Shown here: one piece after another, positions 19,722 through 32,000 of the stretch
How the letters are laid out: every line of letters begins with the position of its first letter
How positions within the stretch are numbered: the first letter of the stretch is position 1
Assembly (NCBI GenBank): GCA_026387835.1
Contig: JAPLKZ010000007.1
Coordinates: forward strand, 199,291 to 231,290
DNA length: 32,000 nucleotides
Source of the DNA: Candidatus Saganbacteria bacterium
Lineage (GTDB): Bacteria > Margulisbacteria > WOR-1 > JAKLHX01
Direction of reading: 5' to 3'
The notes under the pieces: generated by a model
What the model was told of the DNA's origin: nothing
Seen by the model: the letters and a program-made list of their open reading frames with translations, nothing else
The model's database searches: none
Translations under genes and position numbers: made by a program

Positions 19722-20441
19722 ATGAAAAACTTTTTTATATATAGCGGTATTATTGTTATAATAGTTGTGTTTGTAATTGCTAGATTGGTAGATCTGTTGC
19801 TCAATATTTTTTCAAATGACAAAGAACTTGACGCCCAGAAATTTCTATATAAGTGGTCGCACAGATTATTTTGGGTGATAAATTCCAAGGTTGAATTCTC
19901 CGGCCTCGAAAATATCCCCGCGACCGGCCCGGTGATCATTGTGGCAAGGTACAGGTTCCCCATAGATCTTATAATATCCACAGCAATTTTTAAGAGAAAA
20001 GTATATCTTGCCGTGGATTCGACATTTTTTGTTTTTCCGCTTTCATTTATGAGCAAAAGCGCAGGATATCTGAACATTGACAACAAGAATCTTTTGATCG
20101 CGGCGCAGCAGATGGATAAGACAATAGAAAAGCTCAGGGCGGGTTCGGCTATTTTTATGTTCATAAGCAGAAGGACAGACATTGACAGTCCCGTTCACGG
20201 CCCCGCTTTTGCGTCCCTTGAAACTAATATCCCGGTCATCCCTATTGCGATAAATTCGACCCCGGAATTATCTGTATTCACTAATTTTATATATGGCATG
20301 TTCGTCCGTAAAAAGGTGTTAGATGTCATTAAGGTCAGGATCGGAGAGCCAATAATGTCAAATGAGCAAAATGACAGGATCGGAAGGGTTAAGTTCACAG
20401 AAGAAATAGTCAGAAAGATCGATTCGATGCTGAAAAAATAG
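19722..20441 (+). CDS. PlsC/LPLAT-like acyltransferase with an N-terminal TM helix and degenerate catalytic motifs
   Basis: The N-terminal TM segment is FIYSGIIVIIVVFVIARLV. The block order resembles 1-acyl-sn-glycerol-3-phosphate acyltransferases: GLENIPATGPVIIVARYRFPIDLI (versus NHxSxxD), AGYLNIDN, AIFMFISRRT (versus FPEGTR) and NIPVIPIAI (versus VPIVPV). The HX4D His is replaced by Tyr. Confidence 0.5.
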   Translation: MKNFFIYSGIIVIIVVFVIARLVDLLLNIFSNDKELDAQKFLYKWSHRLFWVINSKVEFSGLENIPATGPVIIVARYRFPIDLIISTAIFKRKVYLAVDSTFFVFPLSFMSKSAGYLNIDNKNLLIAAQQMDKTIEKLRAGSAIFMFISRRTDIDSPVHGPAFASLETNIPVIPIAINSTPELSVFTNFIYGMFVRKKVLDVIKVRIGEPIMSNEQNDRIGRVKFTEEIVRKIDSMLKK

Positions 20442-20518: not shown

Positions 20519-23500
20519 TCAGCACATAAAGTTGTTATTACCGTTTTTGTCGGGTTCGCCGGTTATCGGATCTATTTTTTTTATTGAACCGGCACATATA
20601 GTATTACTGTCCTTGCTGTTGAGCATATCTTCTATTTTGGCCTTCAGGTCTTTTCCGATGCTGTCATTGTCCACTCTTAAGATCGCTTTCTTTACATATT
20701 CGGAATTAGATACCAACGCCAGTTGAGACAAGACGGCTATGGCATCTTTGGTCTCGAGTACTGAAAGTATATAGGCGGCCACTTCAGGCTTGAAATTCCT
20801 TAAGAATTTAGCCGTCTCCTCCGGTCCCATCCCATTAGCGATAATCTGAGAAAGGGCTACCTTGGCAGATTCTTTGGTTGCAAATGTCAATATGCTGCTC
20901 ACCGCGACCTGTTCGATCTTCGGCTTGACGATGTCTTGGTCGGCAGGATCCTTTACAGTGGCTGTCATGAACAGCTGGGAATTGATCTGATCGAACATCT
21001 TCCGCATGATCTTATCGGTCTCATCCTTTAACGCGGGAGATCCCGGAAGATTTGATATAGTGCTTACGAGATTAAGCAGCTTTGGCATCGACACATTTAT
21101 ATCCGGCTTATCAGTAAGGGTCGAGATCATGCCGATGATCTTGCTTGCGGCGATTGCCGGGTTTTCAAGTATCATTTTGGCGATATAGTCATTTGATGCG
21201 TTGCCCTCAAGAAGTTTTAGTGCTGTCTGTGCTGCCTGCTTGCACGTAATATTCGTTGAAGTGTTTTGCAGTGATTCTACGGCATTTTCAAGCTTGCTGA
21301 TCACCAATTGTTTTGTGCTTTCTTTGATATTCGATCCGGTCACCAAAGCTTTTACCTGCGTAAGCGTATCCTGCGCTTCTTCAGGCTTTGAGAAGTTCTT
21401 CTGTTTAAGTCCGTAGATGATGTTCTTTGCGTTTGCCGCGCTTGTGGGATCAAGTTTAGCCGATATGCTGTTAAGGAACTGTTCGATCGGTTTCTTCAAC
21501 GATTTTATTTGAGCCTCGGTTTCGTTGCCCGAAGCGGATATCCTTTTGGCGTTGTCTGCCCTGTTCTTTATTCCTATTGCTATCCTTAATATAGATGCGT
21601 CTTCATTATTTAATTTATTGTTTTTATCGGCATTTATCTCCGCCTCAATTTTCTTCATTTCGTTTTCATCAAATACCCCTTTGGTTTCGTTAGTAACTGA
21701 TGAAGCAGTTGAACTCCTTGATACTTGCTTGTCATCTCTGAACGTATCAGGCCTTATGGCAGCCTGCGCCTGGTTGATGACTACAGGGCTCTGTGTCGTC
21801 CTCATTATGTTCTCGGCTATCTCAACGGCTTTTACGGCCTGTTTTGTCTCCTTGGCAATAGCCATCACCTGATGCTGTTTCTGCGGCTCAAGGTTCAATA
21901 TGATCTGCGCCGCCTGCGTGGGTTCCTTATCCTTAACCGCCTGGACTATCATCTGTGTCGGCACCACATCAAGCACTTTTGCAGCTTCAGTGGCCGTCAT
22001 CTCGCCTTTGATGACCTTAGAGACCACCTGCGAGACCGCTTTCTGTACAGCCTGTTCTGCCTTGCTTACCACTACGTTGGTATTCATGTCCTTGGGCACG
22101 TCGGTCGATACCTTGGAAAGTACCGCCACCAGGTCTTTTACCGCTGCCGTGTTGTTGGCGCTTATCTCGTCATCTATTACTATTATTATCTGGTTTATTA
22201 CATCTTCTGCCTTTTTGGGATTATCCATCACCATCTGTACAACTTTATCTTCCGTTGTAGGCTTCATGTTCATTGCCTGAGGTGCATGCTGTGCTTCCTT
22301 CACAGGTGTATATGAGGTCGGCATGCTTTCAGCCTGCTTCACCTGCGGTTTATTGACTACAGGAGCGGCCTGCACGGCTGTTTTGACTTGAGGCTCTATA
22401 ACAGCCTGCGGAGCAGCTTCCATTTTCTGCGTGATCTTCTCTATCGCCTTGTCTAAGGCCACCGTGATTCTGATATTGTTCGGTACCGCTGCTTTTACTT
22501 CTTCAAGCGCTATCACTATCTGCTGCATATTCTCCGGATTCACTTTCTTTTCCGAATGTTCTATGACAGCAGGGATCATTCTTGCCACTTTGTCGATCAT
22601 GTTGGGCTTGCTTGTTATAGCCCGCACAACATCTTCCACCGGCTTGTTGTTGACTATATCGTTCACCGCTTTCTGTGCCGCATCTTTTGCCCTTACGTTG
22701 ACAGAGGTATTGTCCACTGCTTCCATGGCCTGCGTCAGCTTTTGTGCTATGACCTCTTTCACTTTTTCGTTGATCTTTGCACCGTTTGCCATGTCCTTCA
22801 CCTGAGATATGAACCTCGCCACTTTTTCCGTGTTCGTGAAGTCGGCTTTCTTTATCTCTGAGCTCATGTCCTTTGCTTTTTTGGCCTCTGTTTGCGGCAG
22901 CTTCTCCGCTATCTGTGTCAGGAGCTGTTCCATTGGCTTCTTTAAGGCATTGAGCTGCGTCGCGGGGTCAACGGCTTTTTGGGATGCCTCTTTAGCGGCT
23001 AGAGCCCCGTTCTTTATGACGATGACTGTGGATACTATCCTTGTATCCGCCTTGCTGGCCTTGGACAAACTCTTCATATTGCTCATCTCCGCCCTTATCA
23101 TATCTGTTTCTAACCTTGTGAACTCCTCATCAGTAGAGACCTCTTTGGACGCTTCAGTTGTCGGGGCTTGTTCTACCTGCCTGGGATTCCTGAATGAATC
23201 CTGCATTATGATTGGCTGAGCCTGGATGCCGGCTGGAGATACCTGGTTCCTCCTGGTGTTCTCGGCTATAACTACAGCTTTGATAGCTTGTTGTTTCTCA
23301 TTGGCCATAGCGATCACCTGATGCCGTTTTCCAGGTTCAAGATTGACTATCACCATAGCCGCTGCCTCAGGACTCGCCTTTGCCATGGCTCTCACTGTCA
23401 CTTCAGCAGGAACGTTGTTAAGCGCTGTGGCCGCTTCTTCAGGAGTTATCTTGCCTTCGGCGACCTTTGAGATAACCAGCGAAACGGCTTTCTGTACCTC

Positions 23501-26500
23501 CTCCTGTACTTGCGGTCTGGTAACTGCAGGTGCGGGGTGTTTAGTTGTTTCGACCTGCGGCTGTTGTATGATCGCCTGCGGTGCGGTTTTCATATTTTGA
23601 ATGATCTTTTCTATCGCTTTGTCTATGGCTACGGATACGGGGATGTTCCTCGGATCGGATGTTTTTACTTGTTCAAGGGCGATCACTATCTGCTGGACGT
23701 TCTCAGGCTTTACCGGCTTTTCAGACTGCTCTATGACGATCGGGATCATCCTTGCCATTTTGTCTATCATATTTGGCTTGCTTCTTATTGCCTGTACCAC
23801 CTGGTCCACCGGCATGTTTCTGACTATATTGGCAACTACCTTGATGGCTACCTCTTTTGCCTTTACATTGTCGGAGGTGTTCTCTACAGCTTCCTTGGCC
23901 CGCGTCAGCTTTTGTGCAATTACTTCTTTTACCTTGTCATTGACCTGGGCCTTGCTTGCCAGGTCCTTTATACGATCCATGAAATTAACAACATCTTCGG
24001 TATTAGTGAAACTGGCTCCCTTTATCTCCGAGATCATTTCCTTTGCTTTTTTGGCCTCAGTCGGCTGTAGCTTTGCCGCTATCTGTGTCAGAAGCTGTTC
24101 CATAGGCTTCTTTAATGCATTGAGCTGCGTCGTGGTATCAAGTGCGTTCAGTGATGCCCGCTCAGCGACTTCAGCGCTCCTCTTTATCCTGACGGCTGCG
24201 GATAACATCATCATCTCAGCCTTGTTGGCTTTGGGTGCGGTCGCGTTGTTCACTTCCGTTTGTACTTGGGTTATCTCTGCTGCTAAGGTTATATCTTCTA
24301 GCATAGTGGCACTGGACATTGCAACTGTTGAAGCTCTTGGTGTTTGCACGGTGTCATTGGATCTATCCGATCTTGCGGCAGCCGGTGTCTGGTTGACGGC
24401 CGGCGTCATCAGTTTGCTCATGATCCTCTCGGCTATCTCCGCCGCTCTGACGGCTTGGTTTGTATCCTTGGCCACGGTGATCACCTGCTGTTGTTTCTGC
24501 GGTTCAAGCCTTATTATGATCATTGCCGCCTGCGATGGCTCCATATCTTTAACTGCGGGCACTATCATCTGCGCGGGCAGCACTTCAAGCATCTTTGCCG
24601 CTTCTGAGGCCGATATCTCGCTCGTCGAGACTTTAGCCACTATCTTGGAGGCCATATTTTGCGCGTTTTTTGCAGCCATCTCGAGCACGGACACGGATTC
24701 TTTCTCCGATCGGGTCATTGATACTGGCGTTCTATCTATGATCGTGCTGAGGACCGACAATAGTTCGCTGGCACTTGTGACATTGTTGGCCTTGACCGCC
24801 TTGTCGGTGGCTGTGGTGATCTGGTTGACCTTGTCTTTTGCTTCCTCGGGCTTTACGATCGCTAACGTCATTACTTCGTTCTGCAGGCTTTGTTTTACAT
24901 TGATCGCTTCACTTCTGACTGCAGGTTTGCTCACAGGTCTTGATGCTGGCTGCGGTTTTTCCACCCTTGTGGCAATATCTGTTAAAATGTCATCGATTAT
25001 TTTATCGACCGCACTTTTGATATTTTCAACATTGGAACGTGTTATTTTTGCGTATTCTGCTGCTGTTTTGTTATACTGCTCTTCCGGGACGATAAGCTTG
25101 ATCAAGGCCAGATTGTTTAATGCATTCGGCATCGTGGAAAGCGCGGATGCTGATAAAGCCTCGCGTATGATATCATTGACGCTGCGAGTTGTCTTTGTTC
25201 TGTCTGCTGGCTTTATCTGCACTTCAGGAGAGACGGTTTGATCTTTGCTCGACGTTAATAATGATATGACATTTGGCGGATGCTGCACCAAGTCCCTCGC
25301 CTTGAGTATTTGAGACTCTTTGGCATTCATTATTCTCTTGGTGAATGCATCGGCGACCTTTTGAAAGTTTGCGGAATCGGTCTTGTAAAGCTTTGCCAAG
25401 GCCTGCCCCTCTGATTTCAGAAAATTGTTTTGCATCTCAAGCTTTTCGCTGGCGCTGGCCTTGCTGAATTTATCCAGGAATTCTTGAGGCATTGTGAGGG
25501 TATTTGTTTTTGTGTCAAATTGCGGTAGTTTCCCTGTGTCCGTGCCCACGACTACGTTGATCTGTTCTTTAGATCCCGAGTTGACATAGAGACTGGCCAT
25601 TTCGTCCCTTCCCGGCTTTTGTATGGAGCCGGCAATTTTGTAAAATTTATCGATATTGGCCTGGGTCAAGTTGTCCGTATTGTACCCTAATTGTTTCAGG
25701 TTATTTTTCGCATCTGCCAATAAGTTCTGGTCCACGGTCTTTCCGTCAGCCTTGTATATGCCCTTAGCGGCGCTCTCCATCGGGTCGTACTTGCCGATGT
25801 TGTTGACGATGCTCATTATCATTTCCTTTATCAGGCCGCTCAGGGTCATTTTCTCATCGAGTTCCCTTAAGAACTGCTGGTAAAAGGCTTCAGCGTCGAA
25901 CATCGCTGTTGACGCGTCCACCTGGGCCTGAAGCTGCAGCTGTTCCGTCATGGCGAAGACGTTTGGTTTTGCGGCCGCGCCGCCGCCGGCTTTGCCTGCG
26001 CCTCCCGCGGCATTGGCTGAACCTCCGGCACTGTCTATATTTAAATTCTTTCCTTCTTTTTTCTTTGCATTGCCCTTGTTTATTGCGTTTGCTATCATCT
26101 TTGCCAGGTTATCGCTGAATAATACAGCGACAAGTGCCTTTGCAACATAGGAAGCGGCTCTACCGCCCATTGCCGGGGTAAGCAGCTTCTGGGCCCAGGT
26201 CGATACAGCGGTGTTCGAGTTTGTCATATTCATGAACCTGTCTTTTCCTTTAAAAAATGAGGATAAATTTGAAAGAGGGCCGCCGCCGTTAGAATTAAAA
26301 AGATGTGAGGCTTTCTTCGCTGCTTCTTGTTTTTCTCTTGCTTCCTTTTGCGCATCAGTTTCTTGTTTGTTAGCATTTTGAGGTTTTTCTGATTGATTTG
26401 GTTGTGTGGATTGACTTTCTGATGTGCCTGATGTGCCTGATGTGCCTGTTGTACCTTCGCCGCCGAATTCTAAACCACCGTCTACCGGGTAAGTCCCGTC

Positions 26501-29500
26501 TGCGCTTCCCTCTTTCTCTTGAACTTGTGTTTTACCGGAAGTATCCGCATTTTTTGCCGGGTCATTTTTCACTTCTTTCGCAGCATCTTTAGAAGGCAAA
26601 CCTTCTGCATTTTCCATTGTATTTGATCCGGGAGTAGTTGTACCTTCGGTACCTCCGGTGGTGACATTACCGCCGGCATCGGCACCTCCCGCGTCGGCAG
26701 CTCCAACGCATGCCGCGACGATCGAGATGACCGCCTTGACTATCGATATGATGAACATGATGTTCGCCATAACGAGTGCTTTCTCGGCATCCCTGATCTG
26801 GTTCATCCTGTCCACGTAGGTATGGAGTGTGTCGAACAGCTGCTGCAGCGCTGTGGTCGAGACTTCCTTGCTCGCTTGAATGCCCATCAGCGTATAATCC
26901 TGGGCATCCAGCGCTATGCCGCCCACGGACCTGAGCACCATGTTCCTTATTCTCCTCTGAGAGTCCATTACTTCCTGTGAAGCTGTCGCGGCGTTATAGG
27001 CCATGTCTATCTCTCTTCTCATGATATAGAAATTGCTTTGGTTCAACCCCACGTAGCCGTCGCTCGTGCTGACGATCAGGTCTTCCGTTGCCTGGGAAAG
27101 GATCTCTTTTAATGATTGATAGAGTTTGTCGAAACGGCCCTGGTCTTTTTGTTTGTCGATGATCTTCAGGACCTCGTCAAGGATATTTGTTTTATACCTG
27201 TCGAGGTCGCCGTACCCGGAATTTTTGTCTTCCTCGGCGCACTTTTTGTTATAGTAAGCCTGCATTATGACGATGGCCGCGATGATGACGGCGGCAACGA
27301 TCGCCCCGACGCCGGTGCAGGCCAGCACTGCGGCGACGATCTCCATTATAATCTTCACTGCCGAGAACCAGAGATTGGTCATTGCCCGGTCAAGCTGCTT
27401 TTCCCACTGTGTCCGTGCGTTATGCGCGCTTATGTTCTCCCGGACCAGTTCCGTCTTCAGTTGAAGTGCCTGCATATATCTTGCGTTCATGGACTTCAGG
27501 CCGTTCGATATGGTCTGGAAATGTCTTGCCGTCCATCCGATTCTTCCCATCAGCTGGAGCATAAGGTCGATGATCTCTTGTCCGGTGGTCTCTATCTGCA
27601 TCATCCCCAGTCCGAGCATAAAAAGCTGCGACATCTCATCGGATAATGCGGTGATCTGTGCCGCGTCGTTCCCCCACATGTCGTCGCCCACGTTTATATG
27701 GGACCCGGTAGTCAGCTGGTCGACAAGGCCTCTGTACTGCGTGGCGATATCGCTGATCGCATCCGCGACCATATTGCCGGTGATGCGTCTTTCTGTTTTA
27801 TTGTCGTAAAATTTATCATCTTCATGATAAAGTTCCGGCTTTTCGTGTTCCAGCAGGTACATAATGTTATAAATTCCATCAAAAAGACCTTGTCCCATCA
27901 TACCGCCTATGATGAAGCCGAGCATATTTGCGAAAAAGCTCCCGATTATTTTTTCTTTTTCAAGTTCCCATTCTCTTTCCTTGTTGTTTTCCTCGACCTC
28001 GTCCCTGAGGCTCTGCATGACGAGGGAAAAAGCCACCTTCATGTCGTCCTCTAAGGTTACTAACGAATCCTCGACTGCCGGAAGCTCTTCGCCCAGCGGG
28101 TTTTGTCCTGTGGCCGCGTAAAGGGCGATCATCACGAGGCGCGCTTTTGATTCCATCACCAGCATATACGCTTTTCTTAAGTTGTCGATGCTCTCGAGCT
28201 TGTCGCCTATACTGTTCAGATATTCTTCGTTCAAAGCTTTGAACCCGTCGCCGACCCCTATTATGCCCCCGTTATAAGCGGTCATGATAAGATCGTTTTC
28301 TTCTTTGTCCAGCTGGTCGAGGATGTTATTGCATATCGACTTCATCGAGATGCCCCACAGGTTCAATGCTTCCTCGACATTGTCGAAATTGATCCTTGTC
28401 GGTGTATACTGGAAATCCTCGATGGTCAACAGATATATGACATCGGTAATTTTTTCCACAAAACTGGCGACAAAAAAAAGTGCGGGGCAGAACAAGCAGA
28501 TGCCGAATGCCGTCCACATCGAGTCCAGCATTTCTTTTGCTTTTTCATGTTCCCACACTGAATAGGCGTATTTGTTGCGCGCCTCTATCTCCAGTTGCAG
28601 CTGGTTTATGTTGGCCAGCAATAATGTTCTTTCGCCGTCCGTGGTGTATTTGAGATAATCAAAGACCATGTTCCATCTTGATGAGTCGGAGGTTATCCCC
28701 GACATTATCTCGATCATCATGGATTTGAGCTTTTCTTTCACGGAGAGCGACATGTAATAGGCTTTTCTCAGGTCGTTGATTATCGTTTGTCCGTGGAGTA
28801 TGGCGTATGCCAGGTCTTTGTTCAGGTCGTAATAACTATTCCCGTAGCCGTTATCGCCGGCTGCTGCCATCAGATACTGGCGGTTGGCCTCGTCCAGATA
28901 ATTCAGTTCGAGTTTGACGAACGGGTCGGCGGTCCTCCTCTTTCTTTCTTCGATCACCACGTCGAGGAAGCCTTTAAGAGTGTCCGTCAGACTGGCCTGC
29001 ACGTCCTTAAATGCTCTATCGATCGCTTCTTTTGCCGCGGTGTATTTTTCCTCGTACTCTCTGTGCGTCGCGTCGAGTCCGATGAAATCAAGAAGTGAAT
29101 TGATACAGCTGGAGGACCCGCCTTGTGCGGAAGCTTGCGCGCCCAGCATTTTTCTGTCATATTCCGCGTTGTTTTTATCATGTATGTAGTTCATCGTGTT
29201 GGTAAATATGAACTTTGGCCCCTGCATATCATGCCTGAAGCCTTTATTTATGATCTCAGTGTATTTGACGTCCCTGGAAGAGGCCTCCTTAGGCCCTTTA
29301 AAAAGCTGGAGAATGTAGCCCTTGATGTTTTCCTTAGTTTCGCCGATCATCGCGATACCGAGAAGCAGCGACCATAATTCCTGCAGCTTGTAATAATAGT
29401 CTTTGAATTTCGGATCAAGCGTGATATAACCGTCGCCGTAATCTGTTGTCCATGTCGATGAGGAATTCCCCGCCAGAAGTATGTCCAGGGTTTGCTTGAT

Positions 29501-29842
29501 CTCCGCTCCGAGCCCTTCTACCGCCTGTGCTACCGCGTCCGGTTCTGCAACCTGATAATTATAATTGACGGGTGTTATCGCGGTGCTTTCGTTATCATAG
29601 GTTAAAGGCTGGTTCACGACATAGTTGCCCTGAGTATCAACAGTGTCAAGTTGTTCGGCATCGAAAACAGTTGCGTTGCTGTCTGTGTTGTCTGATGGAG
29701 TTGATACACCGTCAGCTGATGTGTTTGCCATTAAAGCATCAAAGGTTGATACAGTTGTGGAATAATTGACCTGACCCGTGATATTGGCATTCACGTCAGT
29801 GCGGGTTGTCTGATCAGGAATATCTATAGTTGTAGTGCTCAT
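20519..29842 (-). CDS. giant (3107 aa) multi-pass membrane / long-tandem-repeat protein of unknown function
   Basis: It is a single 9324-nt ORF with no internal stop. Hydrophobic TM-like segments are at about aa 441-461, 632-655, 823-862 (double length) and 1022-1048. G/T/S/A/K/E-rich low-complexity linkers span about aa 1048-1300. Long tandem repeats span aa 1724-3107. There is no N-terminal signal-peptide-like segment and no SD upstream of the ATG. I recognised no catalytic motif. Confidence 0.85.
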   Translation of the reverse strand: MSTTTIDIPDQTTRTDVNANITGQVNYSTTVSTFDALMANTSADGVSTPSDNTDSNATVFDAEQLDTVDTQGNYVVNQPLTYDNESTAITPVNYNYQVAEPDAVAQAVEGLGAEIKQTLDILLAGNSSSTWTTDYGDGYITLDPKFKDYYYKLQELWSLLLGIAMIGETKENIKGYILQLFKGPKEASSRDVKYTEIINKGFRHDMQGPKFIFTNTMNYIHDKNNAEYDRKMLGAQASAQGGSSSCINSLLDFIGLDATHREYEEKYTAAKEAIDRAFKDVQASLTDTLKGFLDVVIEERKRRTADPFVKLELNYLDEANRQYLMAAAGDNGYGNSYYDLNKDLAYAILHGQTIINDLRKAYYMSLSVKEKLKSMMIEIMSGITSDSSRWNMVFDYLKYTTDGERTLLLANINQLQLEIEARNKYAYSVWEHEKAKEMLDSMWTAFGICLFCPALFFVASFVEKITDVIYLLTIEDFQYTPTRINFDNVEEALNLWGISMKSICNNILDQLDKEENDLIMTAYNGGIIGVGDGFKALNEEYLNSIGDKLESIDNLRKAYMLVMESKARLVMIALYAATGQNPLGEELPAVEDSLVTLEDDMKVAFSLVMQSLRDEVEENNKEREWELEKEKIIGSFFANMLGFIIGGMMGQGLFDGIYNIMYLLEHEKPELYHEDDKFYDNKTERRITGNMVADAISDIATQYRGLVDQLTTGSHINVGDDMWGNDAAQITALSDEMSQLFMLGLGMMQIETTGQEIIDLMLQLMGRIGWTARHFQTISNGLKSMNARYMQALQLKTELVRENISAHNARTQWEKQLDRAMTNLWFSAVKIIMEIVAAVLACTGVGAIVAAVIIAAIVIMQAYYNKKCAEEDKNSGYGDLDRYKTNILDEVLKIIDKQKDQGRFDKLYQSLKEILSQATEDLIVSTSDGYVGLNQSNFYIMRREIDMAYNAATASQEVMDSQRRIRNMVLRSVGGIALDAQDYTLMGIQASKEVSTTALQQLFDTLHTYVDRMNQIRDAEKALVMANIMFIISIVKAVISIVAACVGAADAGGADAGGNVTTGGTEGTTTPGSNTMENAEGLPSKDAAKEVKNDPAKNADTSGKTQVQEKEGSADGTYPVDGGLEFGGEGTTGTSGTSGTSESQSTQPNQSEKPQNANKQETDAQKEAREKQEAAKKASHLFNSNGGGPLSNLSSFFKGKDRFMNMTNSNTAVSTWAQKLLTPAMGGRAASYVAKALVAVLFSDNLAKMIANAINKGNAKKKEGKNLNIDSAGGSANAAGGAGKAGGGAAAKPNVFAMTEQLQLQAQVDASTAMFDAEAFYQQFLRELDEKMTLSGLIKEMIMSIVNNIGKYDPMESAAKGIYKADGKTVDQNLLADAKNNLKQLGYNTDNLTQANIDKFYKIAGSIQKPGRDEMASLYVNSGSKEQINVVVGTDTGKLPQFDTKTNTLTMPQEFLDKFSKASASEKLEMQNNFLKSEGQALAKLYKTDSANFQKVADAFTKRIMNAKESQILKARDLVQHPPNVISLLTSSKDQTVSPEVQIKPADRTKTTRSVNDIIREALSASALSTMPNALNNLALIKLIVPEEQYNKTAAEYAKITRSNVENIKSAVDKIIDDILTDIATRVEKPQPASRPVSKPAVRSEAINVKQSLQNEVMTLAIVKPEEAKDKVNQITTATDKAVKANNVTSASELLSVLSTIIDRTPVSMTRSEKESVSVLEMAAKNAQNMASKIVAKVSTSEISASEAAKMLEVLPAQMIVPAVKDMEPSQAAMIIIRLEPQKQQQVITVAKDTNQAVRAAEIAERIMSKLMTPAVNQTPAAARSDRSNDTVQTPRASTVAMSSATMLEDITLAAEITQVQTEVNNATAPKANKAEMMMLSAAVRIKRSAEVAERASLNALDTTTQLNALKKPMEQLLTQIAAKLQPTEAKKAKEMISEIKGASFTNTEDVVNFMDRIKDLASKAQVNDKVKEVIAQKLTRAKEAVENTSDNVKAKEVAIKVVANIVRNMPVDQVVQAIRSKPNMIDKMARMIPIVIEQSEKPVKPENVQQIVIALEQVKTSDPRNIPVSVAIDKAIEKIIQNMKTAPQAIIQQPQVETTKHPAPAVTRPQVQEEVQKAVSLVISKVAEGKITPEEAATALNNVPAEVTVRAMAKASPEAAAMVIVNLEPGKRHQVIAMANEKQQAIKAVVIAENTRRNQVSPAGIQAQPIIMQDSFRNPRQVEQAPTTEASKEVSTDEEFTRLETDMIRAEMSNMKSLSKASKADTRIVSTVIVIKNGALAAKEASQKAVDPATQLNALKKPMEQLLTQIAEKLPQTEAKKAKDMSSEIKKADFTNTEKVARFISQVKDMANGAKINEKVKEVIAQKLTQAMEAVDNTSVNVRAKDAAQKAVNDIVNNKPVEDVVRAITSKPNMIDKVARMIPAVIEHSEKKVNPENMQQIVIALEEVKAAVPNNIRITVALDKAIEKITQKMEAAPQAVIEPQVKTAVQAAPVVNKPQVKQAESMPTSYTPVKEAQHAPQAMNMKPTTEDKVVQMVMDNPKKAEDVINQIIIVIDDEISANNTAAVKDLVAVLSKVSTDVPKDMNTNVVVSKAEQAVQKAVSQVVSKVIKGEMTATEAAKVLDVVPTQMIVQAVKDKEPTQAAQIILNLEPQKQHQVMAIAKETKQAVKAVEIAENIMRTTQSPVVINQAQAAIRPDTFRDDKQVSRSSTASSVTNETKGVFDENEMKKIEAEINADKNNKLNNEDASILRIAIGIKNRADNAKRISASGNETEAQIKSLKKPIEQFLNSISAKLDPTSAANAKNIIYGLKQKNFSKPEEAQDTLTQVKALVTGSNIKESTKQLVISKLENAVESLQNTSTNITCKQAAQTALKLLEGNASNDYIAKMILENPAIAASKIIGMISTLTDKPDINVSMPKLLNLVSTISNLPGSPALKDETDKIMRKMFDQINSQLFMTATVKDPADQDIVKPKIEQVAVSSILTFATKESAKVALSQIIANGMGPEETAKFLRNFKPEVAAYILSVLETKDAIAVLSQLALVSNSEYVKKAILRVDNDSIGKDLKAKIEDMLNSKDSNTICAGSIKKIDPITGEPDKNGNNNFMC
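20522..24673 (-). repeat. about 3.3 in-frame long tandem repeats (units ~389, ~482, ~396 and a truncated ~117 aa) forming the C-terminal 45% of the giant protein
   Basis: Unit boundaries from repeated landmarks are 23507-24673, 22061-23506, 20873-22060 and 20522-20872. Landmarks include EAAKMLEVLPAQMIVPAVKDMEPSQAAMIIIRLEPQKQQQV (aa 1747), EAATALNNVPAEVTVRAMAKASPEAAAMVIVNLEPGKRHQV (2135), EAAKVLDVVPTQMIVQAVKDKEPTQAAQIILNLEPQKQHQV (2619) and ETAKFLRNFKPEVAAYILSVLETKDAIAVLSQL (3009). TQLNALKKPMEQLLTQIA is identical at aa 1905 and 2295, a period of 390 aa or 1170 nt. The antisense shadow ORFs at 22431 and 23601 also start with the same peptide, MIFSIALS. Confidence 0.85.
26421..26447 (-). repeat. 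perfect 9-nt x3 tandem repeat (gatgtgcct) encoding GTSGTSGTS in a low-complexity linker of the giant protein
   Basis: Read directly: gatgtgcct occurs at 26421-26429, 26430-26438 and 26439-26447. It is in frame, so copy-number change would only alter linker length. Confidence 0.8.
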
Positions 29843-29845
29843 ATA

Positions 29846-29875
29846 ATATATATATTTACGGGTCTATATATATAT
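29846..29875. repeat. two (TA)5-type dinucleotide tracts separated by 9 nt, immediately upstream of the giant-gene start codon
   Basis: atatatatat is at 29846-29855 and tatatatatat at 29865-29875, with spacer ttacgggtc. The tracts are self- and mutually complementary and could form a ~10-bp AT hairpin or cruciform. The start codon is at 29842-29840. Confidence 0.8.
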
Positions 29876-29965
29876 CGTTGTATTGAAGCTAAAACTTGCG
29901 GGGAATAATGGGTCATTTTTGGCTGTTTAATGGCAAAATAATAGCGATTTATTAGCTGATTATTT

Positions 29966-31135
29966 TCAGGTATTTGCTTTTCTTGCTTTGTTATCTGACC
30001 CGATAGCCATTGCTATCGAACGGGCGATCTCTTCCGGTGTGTTGAGGGTTGGATAAGTTAAAACTTCATTCATTCTTTTTCGTGCGTTTGACGACGCGAA
30101 AGTTGTTTCAAGTGACTTCATAAATTCCTGTGCCCTTAAACGGACCTTTTCCGTTATTTTTGAATCCGCTAATTTTTGTTCGTGCCTCTTCTCATATGCT
30201 GTTTCATTCTCTTTCTCATCTGCCTTTCTTGCCTCGATAATGCCGGCCAATATTCTTTTAGCCATCCTCAGAGCTGACTCGTACACTTCAGTTGCCGCAG
30301 TCCATATTTTTGTAATTATTGTTATAACTTTAGGCATGTCTGCGTCAACAGCGGTTTCGTTCTTTGCTATTTGCGGCATTTCCTTGATCGGTGTCGCTGA
30401 AATGGCGCGCATCTGCTCCAATAAAGCGGGATCAATTTTAATGTCATTTTCTGTTGCGATAGATATAAGTTTGGTTGCCTGCTCCCCGCATGCTGTGATC
30501 TCTTTTTCGATCATCGATCTGGCCGGTTGCTTGTCTTTAAACTTTTCTCGCATTGCATTAAGCATATCATTCATCTTTTTGATGGCCTCAGCATCACCAG
30601 TGATGACTATGATCACATATTGTTTATTATGGTTTTTCAGGATTATTTCGGTCTGGACTGCGATTTGAGAATTGTAGCCGGATTCTTGAGCGTGATAAGA
30701 TGATAGTAATTCTTTTAAACTTATAGAATCGTCATTATGCCCGCAATATCCCAAAAAATCCTGTTTTGATCTTCTCAATGATTGTTCTGTTCTTATTCGG
30801 TTTTCTGTTGCACCGTTATTTCCTTCACCTTCTTGTTTCCTGAAATTAAGAATGGCTTCCTGGTGTTTTTTCATTTCCGACAGATAGCTGCGACCTACGG
30901 CAAAAGGTCTCATATAGGAAATAGTGTCGATCATAAAAGAAAAACGCTCCGTAGTCGCGAAAGGGAACTTTTCCTGTTCTTGCGTAAAAGAACCGAGTAC
31001 CCTGTAAGCAGGTCTTGATAGGTCGGGAACAGGTGTAATGACAGTTCTTGGCGTTGCCGTTGTACGCGATGTTAAGCCGTTCCCGGTTTCCTGTATCTTA
31101 GGATCGGTTTTAACAAGCGCAGGATCGGGCAACAT
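29966..31135 (-). CDS. hypothetical protein (389 aa), no recognisable motifs; predicted helical, K/E-rich C-terminal half
   Basis: A good SD GGGAGA lies 7 nt upstream of the ATG at 31135. It is co-directional with the giant ORF and 123 nt upstream of it. There are no TM segments. The sequence reads MLPDPALVKTDPKIQETGNG... Confidence 0.6.
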   Translation of the reverse strand: MLPDPALVKTDPKIQETGNGLTSRTTATPRTVITPVPDLSRPAYRVLGSFTQEQEKFPFATTERFSFMIDTISYMRPFAVGRSYLSEMKKHQEAILNFRKQEGEGNNGATENRIRTEQSLRRSKQDFLGYCGHNDDSISLKELLSSYHAQESGYNSQIAVQTEIILKNHNKQYVIIVITGDAEAIKKMNDMLNAMREKFKDKQPARSMIEKEITACGEQATKLISIATENDIKIDPALLEQMRAISATPIKEMPQIAKNETAVDADMPKVITIITKIWTAATEVYESALRMAKRILAGIIEARKADEKENETAYEKRHEQKLADSKITEKVRLRAQEFMKSLETTFASSNARKRMNEVLTYPTLNTPEEIARSIAMAIGSDNKARKANT

Positions 31136-31202
31136 ATATTATCTCCCTATTTATATATCGATGGTAAGATCGCGAAATTTCATTATATTCTAATTTTCTT
31201 TA

Positions 31203-31499
31203 CTAAACCGGCTTATCTGGACTGAATATATTGCTTTTGTCCGGTTTCTTTGCCTGTTCAGGCGTCATTTCTTTGTCTTTAATGACAGGAAGGCTATTAT
31301 TCAGTTTACCTTGGTAATAGTTTTCCACGACTGCCTGTAAACCATTCATCACTAATTCTGGCATGTTCGCTATTGCTGCTGCCGCGCTATTTACTATATC
31401 TAATCTTGCCTGTGCCACTCTTGCCTGTCCCGGTTCGCCATATAATTTCTGTATTGGCGGTGATCCTTGTTGTTTAGCTTGTATATATATATATGTCAT
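31203..31499 (-). CDS. hypothetical small protein (98 aa)
   Basis: An SD AGGAGA lies 5-6 nt upstream of the ATG at 31499, 10 nt after the upstream stop. The sequence reads MTYIYIQAKQQGSPPIQKLYGEPGQARVAQARLDIVNSAAAAIANMPELV... The C-terminus is Pro/Lys-rich. Confidence 0.45.
   Translation of the reverse strand: MTYIYIQAKQQGSPPIQKLYGEPGQARVAQARLDIVNSAAAAIANMPELVMNGLQAVVENYYQGKLNNSLPVIKDKEMTPEQAKKPDKSNIFSPDKPV
31482..31494 (-). repeat. (TA)6-type tract inside codons 2-6 of the 98-aa ORF
   Basis: tatatatatatat at 31482-31494 encodes TYIYI directly after the ATG at 31499-31497. Confidence 0.8.
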
Positions 31500-31509
31500 T
31501 GTTTTTCTC

Positions 31510-31773
31510 CTACACTACCCTTCCCGTTCCTTCATCCGAAGATGCGATCCCTACTCTGTTCACAGGGAGTGGCGTCTTATCGAAGCCCGCCAATCTCTGG
31601 ATATTCTTCACTGTCTCAAAGGCTCCTTTTACTTGTCCAAACTGTTTTATTGCTTCTGTCAGGCTCGCAAGAGCAAGCCATTTGCTATCCTCCGTTTTTG
31701 CCGGCACGCCACCATTGCCTTTGATTCCCGCCATAAATATTGTCCCATTGATCGGATCCATATCCATGCCCAT
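31510..31773 (-). CDS. hypothetical small protein (87 aa)
   Basis: A consensus SD AAGGAGGA lies about 7 nt upstream of the ATG at 31773 (MGMDMDPINGTIFMAGIKGNGG...). The track start at 31806 lacks an SD and overlaps the upstream ORF. Confidence 0.45.
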   Translation of the reverse strand: MGMDMDPINGTIFMAGIKGNGGVPAKTEDSKWLALASLTEAIKQFGQVKGAFETVKNIQRLAGFDKTPLPVNRVGIASSDEGTGRVV

Positions 31774-31786
31774 AATATTATCCTCC

Positions 31787-32000
31787 TTACGATCCCCGTT
31801 GAGCATCTAGGACTGAAACGCCTCTCTTATCACTTTGCCTAGAACCGGCCACTGTTTTACTGAAAATGTTATAATTTACCAGGTTAAAGGTATTTTCATA
31901 ATAATTATCTACTGTATCCTTGAACTTTTTATTCCAGAATTTTTCGACTCCCGAGCCGCCCAGATCGATTGCAGTTTTCAGTTGTTTCAGTTTTTCCAGC
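31787..32000 (-). CDS. hypothetical protein, C-terminal 70 aa only (gene enters from beyond the window)
   Basis: My own translation of the reverse strand from 31999 (one of the three reverse frames) gives LEKLKQLKTAIDLGGSGVEKFWNKKFKDTVDNYYENTFNLVNYNIFSKTVAGSRQSDKRGVSVLDAQRGS and then TAA at 31789-31787. The stop is embedded in the next gene's SD region. Confidence 0.4.
   Translation of the reverse strand, partial: LEKLKQLKTAIDLGGSGVEKFWNKKFKDTVDNYYENTFNLVNYNIFSKTVAGSRQSDKRGVSVLDAQRGS

Follow-up and report, generated by a model that had tools for sequence, protein, structure and literature searches.

Injectisome translocator operons, such as lcrG-lcrV-lcrH-yopB-yopD of Yersinia and ipgC-ipaB-ipaC-ipaD of Shigella, carry small partner genes, and the sigma-28 promoter consensus is TAAAGTTT-N11-GCCGATAA. 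Saganbacteria and Margulisbacteria form a phylum of uncultivated relatives of cyanobacteria. The non-flagellar type III secretion system (T3SS), or injectisome, has been defined by Abby and Rocha 2012 (PMC3459982). Two further reports describe basal body and export machinery kept without flagellar motility in Buchnera (PMC8109811) and a functionally diverged flagellar T3SS (FT3SS)-like system in the non-flagellated Lysobacter enzymogenes (PMC7688988). Our literature search on flagella and T3SS of Saganbacteria and Margulisbacteria found nothing specific. Here, we analysed 32,000 nucleotides (nt) of a Candidatus Saganbacteria bacterium (contig JAPLKZ010000007.1 of assembly GCA_026387835.1, positions 199,291 to 231,290; hereafter the window), focusing on four minus-strand genes, g445, g87, g98 and g389, that precede a giant gene.

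Four orphan genes ahead of a giant gene

The results showed that g389, g98, g87 and g445 are intact protein-coding genes. They sit in a hypervariable slot near the 5' end of the giant gene, within a gene cluster of about 22 kb. We tentatively propose, with a rough probability of 0.4, that their products are soluble partners or cargo of a motor-less flagellar-type machine and of the giant protein. The genome under study (G000) is a 1.5-Mb assembly of 13 contigs, and the locus was followed beyond the window on the extended contig (L001). The genes and promoters concerned, with lengths in amino acids (aa), open reading frames (ORFs) and position weight matrix (PWM) scores, are as follows:

Giant gene: 20519-29842, minus strand, 3107 aa.
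Sigma-28-like promoter of the GCAAGTTT-N14-CGATATATA class: 29869-29899, minus strand, in the 123-nt gap 5' of the giant gene; PWM score 30.0.
g389: 29966-31135, minus strand, 389-aa orphan.
Sigma-28-like promoter of the TGAAAT-N16-CGATA class: 31152-31182, minus strand, in the 67-nt gap 5' of g389; PWM score 19.8.
g98: 31203-31499, minus strand, 98-aa soluble protein; start 10 nt past g87.
g87: 31510-31773, minus strand, 87-aa soluble protein; ATG behind AAGGAGGA, 13 nt past the g445 stop.
g445: 31787-33124 in window numbering (31787-32000 inside the window), L001:2078-3415, minus strand, 445-aa orphan.
g67: L001:3522-3725 (33231-33434 in window numbering, outside the window), minus strand, unlisted 67-aa ORF.

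An earlier note on this DNA had placed four minus-strand genes before the giant ORF. All of these ORFs were recovered, and the spacers between g445, g87, g98, g389 and the giant gene, all head-to-tail, measured exactly the 13, 10, 67 and 123 nt that it gave. On the extended contig, the open-ended ORF that stops at 31787 proved to be the 3' end of g445. The g87 product would be 98 aa long if the ATG at 31806 were taken as its start. Shine-Dalgarno sites (AAGGAGGA, AGGAGA and GGGAGA) were present before the three complete genes, and GGAGAAAAACAATG is the identical ribosome-binding context of both g98 and g67. The small gene g67 probably leads the g445-g87-g98 unit.

We then scored the genes with a codon model specific to reading frame, for which 522 long ORFs from this genome had served as the training set. 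The annotated frames of the four genes had log-odds of +0.11 to +0.26 bits per codon (g87 +0.26, g389 +0.149, g445 +0.141, g98 +0.109), against -0.7 to -1.4 bits per codon in the other two frames, and plus-strand ORFs overlapping the block scored near or below zero in their own frames. We take the four genes to be coding because the annotated frame scores far above the other two, and this signal backs the earlier argument for translation from the Shine-Dalgarno sites. All four scores lie below the genome mean of 0.38 +/- 0.11, three of them by about 2 standard deviations. These low values, together with the complete lack of homologues, would fit non-functional ORFs, either the decaying remains of slot genes seen in relatives or ORFs arising by chance. 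However, intact ORFs as long as 389 and 445 codons go far beyond what chance would give at 41-43% G+C, and of the three frames the annotated one scores clearly best. Shine-Dalgarno sites and promoters are also good, and purifying selection acts on the positional small genes in relatives. We consider non-functional ORFs very improbable.

To identify relatives of the four proteins, sequence and family databases were searched. For g389, no match was found in 5.8 billion proteins or in the 145 other genomes of the phylum. For g445, 1.84 billion representatives yielded no real match, returning the protein itself and two short weak stretches (E about 1e-4). In the same 145 genomes g87 had no homologue and g98 just two marginal matches. 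None of the four belongs to a family in Pfam, NCBIfam, PHROGs or PADLOC or has a credible sequence match in the PDB, in agreement with the earlier statement that they carry no recognisable motif. No chaperone family was matched by the block proteins, and no paralogy was detected inside the cluster. A stretch of 37 residues in g98 (residues 11-47, window 31359-31469), including LYGEPGQ, aligned with type VIIb EsaA (PDB 7jqe) at a domain E-value of 0.041 and was treated as a chance match. Neither g87 nor g98 contains a WXG motif or matches PF06013, so WXG100 or type VII membership was not supported.

Hydropathy scans found no transmembrane segment or signal peptide in any non-giant protein of the cluster; all maxima were below 1.5, and that of g389 was 0.79. 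The g445 protein begins with a somewhat hydrophobic stretch, continues with a linker rich in Pro, Ala and Thr and ends in a C-terminal domain. A single-sequence AlphaFold2 (AF2) model of g389 had a predicted local distance difference test score (pLDDT) of 51.2 and a predicted template modelling score (pTM) of 0.31. In this low-confidence model, roughly the first 60-80 aa seem disordered and the rest mostly helical; because a model of pLDDT 51 is too poor, a fold search with it would not be meaningful.

Promoter motifs and transcription units

The earlier note had proposed that the block acts as one operon feeding the giant gene. We scanned the genome with the PWM and, at a score of at least 17, found 38 sites, compared with 0-3 in shuffled genomes. 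The site 5' of the giant gene scored highest in the whole genome. The bipartite motif GCAAGTTT-N14-CGATA(T/G)ATA precedes the giant gene, g255, g585, g99 and g67, and the g67 promoter, GCAAxTTT-N14-CGATAGATA, lies 19 nt 5' of the g67 start. A motif of the GCAAGTTT class also stands directly 5' of the giant-gene homologue in eight relatives (G094, G111, G136, G104, G118, G086, G122 and G121), and 5' of a FliK-like gene in the genome under study (Flg_hook 34.6 bits, cut-off 29.8). The block motif resembles the sigma-28 consensus, and two FliA-like sigma genes lie beside flagellar genes in this genome.

Judged by these motifs, the block is organised as three units: promoter-g67-g445-g87-g98, promoter-g389 and promoter-giant gene. 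Each is preceded by a predicted sigma-28-type promoter, either GCAAGTTT-N14-CGATA or TGAAAT-N16-CGATA. The proposal of a single operon was not upheld, because internal promoter motifs precede g389 and the giant gene. No minus-strand terminator was predicted between the units, and read-through is therefore possible.

The promoter family is broad. It was also found 5' of an ankyrin-repeat protein confirmed by Pfam, two HExxH proteins, one of which has a sub-threshold match to a metallopeptidase family, and many small ORFs. The motif therefore indicates co-regulation and does not mark secretion substrates. As a separate observation, five sites of this family (contig C3:83050, minus; C9:70225, plus; C5:122808, plus; C9:83144, plus; C6:49250, minus) precede the ankyrin-repeat protein, the two HExxH proteins and large repeat proteins, which have no obvious signal peptide by eye. 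The genes at these five sites look like an effector-like set.

A conserved cluster with a variable slot

The earlier note expected the block to continue past the window. The extended contig completed g445 and added nine co-directional genes 5' of it, up to L001:13336: g67, g346, g548, a gene of about 68 aa, g255, g1021, g107, g99 and g585. Beyond g585 lie an NTP-transferase gene and a 141-aa ORF taken as rpiB. Among the nine, g585 alone has known domains, its calcium loops being of the EF-hand and dockerin types; the other eight have no family in Pfam, NCBIfam, PHROGs or PADLOC and no sequence relative in the PDB. The g1021 protein has a high content of Trp, Tyr and Asn and contains a poly-Thr linker. 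An AF2 model of g548 built from 13 sequences (pLDDT 66.8) was all-alpha with a disordered N-terminus of 117 aa, and a Foldseek search of the PDB with it gave nothing meaningful, the best hit being a designed protein (E 1e-3, TM-score 0.2). At the other end of the block, the giant gene runs convergently against the PF01553 acyltransferase gene at 19722-20441, as had been described. The giant protein has only sub-threshold Pfam matches (MgtE_N, FliG_M and a SHOCT-like domain). Matches to its N-terminal region occur in 45 of the phylum's 146 genomes, with identities of 19-26% even in same-family genomes.

To assess conservation, we collected 20 neighbourhoods of giant-gene homologues and clustered their proteins by phmmer families and synteny. 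Families across these neighbourhoods were formed by g548, g255, the gene of about 65 aa, g1021 and g107. The g548 gene occurs in 128/146 genomes of the phylum and in all 72 of the high-quality ones. These results demonstrate that Saganbacteria and Margulisbacteria share a conserved core of g548, g255, g107, g1021 and the giant gene. A core gene is thus present in every good genome sampled from a whole uncultivated phylum, in a cluster whose proteins lack a known match. In the genome under study, g255 overlaps the gene of about 68 aa that comes after it (L001:6490-7481, minus strand); the two form one fused ORF of 305-312 aa in G092, G094 and G096 and are separate (about 250 and 65 aa) in G104, G111, G126 and G136.

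The variable slot lies between g548 and the giant gene. In same-family relatives the order is a g548-like gene, a family 19 gene (409-611 aa), two small genes and the giant gene. In other lineages two small genes come first, then a gene of about 320-600 aa and the giant gene, and g548 is located downstream of the latter. In 14/14 Saganbacteria loci in which the giant-gene start is captured, the three genes 5' of it include two ORFs of 61-119 aa, in both gene orders; three further partial loci are consistent with this, and the pair is absent from three Margulisbacteria loci. Small genes beside the giant gene are thus a conserved layout. The genome under study merges both arrangements (g346, g67, g445, g87, g98, g389, giant gene), and g87 and g98 are the positional counterparts of the first and second genes of the relatives' small pair.

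This positional agreement is not accompanied by similarity in sequence. No sequence homologue of the four genes was found in the 20 neighbourhoods or the 145 genomes, and profiles of the relatives' slot families gave a sole signal against the proteins of this genome, a 9-bit match of family 19 to g346. Co-occurrence of the four genes with giant-gene homologues, which the earlier note had set as a test, failed, as 44 other genomes hold a giant homologue without homologues of the four; nor were the small ORFs conserved in sequence among relatives.

Comparisons among relatives show how quickly similarity in the slot is lost. Same-family relatives that share 54-61% identity in g548 share 39-56% in the small-pair proteins. 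In G094, whose g548 is 35-40% identical to that of these relatives (35-38% for G092 and G096) and as distant from them as that of the genome under study, the small-pair proteins no longer cluster with theirs. For G126 and G123, the most closely related pair at hand, ratios of nonsynonymous to synonymous substitution (dN/dS) were 0.45 and 0.29 in the positional small genes, and one slot gene was 37% identical while its neighbours were 68-77% identical. Because similarity in the slot decays this fast, orphan status is expected at the distance of this genome from its nearest relatives, and rapid divergence is sufficient to explain the lost similarity of g87 and g98. The four genes may also serve as a clean example of orphans that arise by rapid divergence inside a conserved frame of gene order, which matters for how 'ORFan' genes in metagenomes are read.

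The larger genes g445 and g389 may be lineage-specific additions, and a further explanation extends this to perhaps all four genes, as accessory members of the sigma-28-like regulon inserted in a permissive slot with no functional tie to the giant gene. Same-family relatives hold nothing that corresponds to g445 or g389, the promoter of g389 is its own and belongs to the general TGAAAT class, many other orphans across the genome share these promoters, codon scores are atypical, and the G+C content at third codon positions is 0.35-0.42 in g98, g389 and g445 (g389 0.40) compared with 0.66-0.71 in the core genes g548 and g255. However, a gene of about 320-600 aa recurs between the small pair and the giant gene in seven relatives (G086, G090, G121, G122, G126, G134 and G142), and g87 and g98 are translationally tight with g445. 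We found no flanking repeats or mobile-element genes at the block and no PHROGs or PADLOC family match, and an origin from a mobile element, phage or defence system was accordingly rejected. Unrelated insertion of the four genes is, in our judgement, rather unlikely.

Two side observations concern slot proteins of relatives. In lineages with the order small, small, about 400 aa, giant (L055, L053, L059-L061 and L057-L058), the second small protein belongs to family 18 or 56 and is built of a single-pass transmembrane helix and, after it, a charged coiled coil, unlike g98 and its counterparts in same-family relatives. Many slot proteins of L043-L061, both small and of about 400 aa, have Pro-rich ends (VVAP, IVAP, VAVP or IPV-like). 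A C-terminal tail of the form (V/I)(V/I/A)xP or IPV occurred in 17/80 slot proteins and 7/90 controls (p = 0.015), and was dropped as evidence because the pattern was post hoc and the proteins of the genome under study do not match it.

Overall, the earlier view of the block as a novel multi-gene system stood in part: the orphan genes, the larger co-directional unit and the layout held, and the single operon and sequence conservation did not.

A flagellar-type apparatus and possible roles of the four genes

We examined the genome for export machinery and found FlhA, FlhB, FliP, FliR, FliF, a FliI-type ATPase, FliM/N, a FliK-like protein, FlgH and FlgI; flagellar regions lie on contigs C13 and C9 (L065-L067). 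Four proteins matched the rod family Flg_bb_rod above its cut-off, three of them also above that of Flg_bbr_C. Flagellin_N, Flagellin_C, FliS, FliG_C, CheW and MotA were absent or below the family cut-off, and Flagellin_N and FliG_C were absent from five near-closed relatives too. No axial protein of the FlgE or FlgK type was found, the FlgL and FliD families not having been searched for.

FlhA was present in 135/146 genomes of the phylum. The genomes without it are fragmented, and some still hold FliP; the export gate was found in all but two of the 72 good genomes, and the gaps are probably assembly gaps. Nine Margulisbacteria genomes carry two FlhA copies, and these are exactly the flagellin-bearing ones among 12 tested. 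A tree of FlhA (loci L068-L087 and the genome under study) resolved two clades with 100/100 support. Clade A was confined to those nine genomes, and clade B comprised their second copies together with all single-copy genomes in the tree, including the one studied here. The clade B FlhA, combined with the missing flagellin and torque domain, therefore indicates that the phylum carries an old flagellar-type apparatus lacking both.

Our proposal connects the four genes to this apparatus. Their products are predicted to be soluble and without a Sec signal, several with polar N-termini. The g87 and g98 proteins would be binding partners or companions of the giant protein, acting as holding or escort factors or being small subunits exported together with it, and g445 and g389 would be fast-evolving exported cargo or distal components of the motor-less secretion machine, diversifying under outside pressure. 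The cluster as a whole would supply substrates and distal parts of the apparatus. We link the two because the cluster proteins lack Sec signals, some members look extracellular, and no distal flagellar part is recognisable in the genome. The products lack Sec and Tat signals and the genome also encodes a type III export apparatus, both of which agree with the general expectation for type III substrates.

Several findings weigh against this proposal. Cytoplasmic proteins equally lack signal peptides. The proposed partners and cargo match no family, and they show no similarity to any T3SS chaperone, tip, needle or translocator protein or to any flagellar late protein. The promoter family also precedes genes that, on reading their sequences, look like ordinary enzymes or unrelated proteins, and the promoter of g389 is of the general class, unlike that of its neighbours. 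No positional counterpart of g445 or g389 exists in the nearest relatives, whose slot holds families 19, 24 and 25 only. Co-occurrence of the cluster with FlhA is uninformative because both are near-universal in the phylum, and the cluster is mostly unlinked to flhA, lying 10 kb away in G029 and 79-500 kb away in others. Separately, in G029, a distant member of the phylum, the equivalent cluster (C5:133000-142000, L063) begins about 6 kb from flhA and encodes proteins of 102, 129, 862, 280, 89, 595 and 812 aa, and none of the seven has a Pfam match.

The lack of linkage to flhA also suits a cytoplasmic role, in which the small pair and the proteins of about 400 aa would fold, insert or regulate the giant putative inner-membrane protein, and the cluster would build an intracellular or envelope structure unrelated to type III export. 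The non-giant proteins have no signal peptides or transmembrane segments, the small pair stays next to the start of the giant gene in each of the 14 loci, and the weak MgtE_N and FliG_M-like repeats of the giant protein are of a cytoplasmic type. However, g585 with its calcium loops and g1021 with its unusual composition and poly-Thr linker look extracellular, and very fast divergence is unusual for housekeeping assembly factors. We consider a purely cytoplasmic role possible, though on the unlikely side.

Beyond partners or cargo of the apparatus, a wider scenario may be drawn. In it, a so far undescribed secretion machine, derived from the flagellum, lacking a motor, present throughout the phylum and marked by clade B FlhA, would have the products of the orphan genes, the giant protein and the rest of the cluster as its distal parts, partners and cargo. 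The machine would be a separate exaptation of the flagellum beside the injectisome, and the hypervariable slot would hold components that contact a target or are exposed to immunity. We hold this wider scenario to be doubtful. If the cluster is indeed linked to the machine, flagellar export would here have been put to a new use, together with a giant membrane-inserting protein of its own and partners that evolve fast, and this would give hints on how these small-genome bacteria deal with other cells.

Comparison with known systems

The block was compared with translocator operons. As in those operons, a gene for a hydrophobic, signal-less and putatively membrane-inserting protein is immediately preceded by small genes (about 90-170 aa) and a gene for a soluble protein of about 300-400 aa; Sec signals are lacking, and the genome encodes a type III export apparatus. 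Unlike them, the block contains no match to a TPR class II chaperone, an LcrV/IpaD tip protein or LcrG. In this test of the four proteins (SycD/IpgC/SicA, LcrV/IpaD/SipD and LcrG; Pfam at E <= 1, NCBIfam at E <= 0.1), Pfam returned only sub-threshold chance matches, none to the chaperone or tip families. The giant protein matched no known translocator family, and its length of 3107 aa is several times that of injectisome translocators. The apparatus also differs, being flagellar-type with L/P rings, and the promoters are sigma-28-like.

The second comparison was with flagellar class 3 genes (FlgM, FlgN, FliS and FliT). Here the likeness lies in sigma-28-type promoters resembling the consensus, in soluble proteins of about 90-100 aa without signal peptides, and in the FliK-like gene behind the same promoter class. 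None of these families (PF04316, PF05130, PF02561 and the FliT family) was among the Pfam matches of the four proteins at E <= 1, and a genome-wide search for FliS was negative. In contrast to class 3 genes, no flagellin, FliS or FlgK-type axial client was found here (FlgL and FliD not searched), and the promoter family also precedes many non-flagellar genes. The block resembles both translocator operons and flagellar class 3 genes in layout and fails every sequence-based test of membership in either.

With the non-flagellar T3SS (PMC3459982), the system described here shares the idea of a flagellum-derived export machine without motility functions; it differs in that L/P rings are kept and no injectisome-specific families were seen, a secretin not having been searched for. 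Like Buchnera and Lysobacter, whose flagellin-less systems are probable exporters, the genome under study has export-gate and basal-body genes without flagellin. Unlike those cases, the apparatus of this phylum is phylum-wide and ancient, coexists in some Margulisbacteria with a second, flagellin-linked FlhA paralogue, and is accompanied by its own conserved cluster of uncharacterised proteins, including a giant putative membrane protein.

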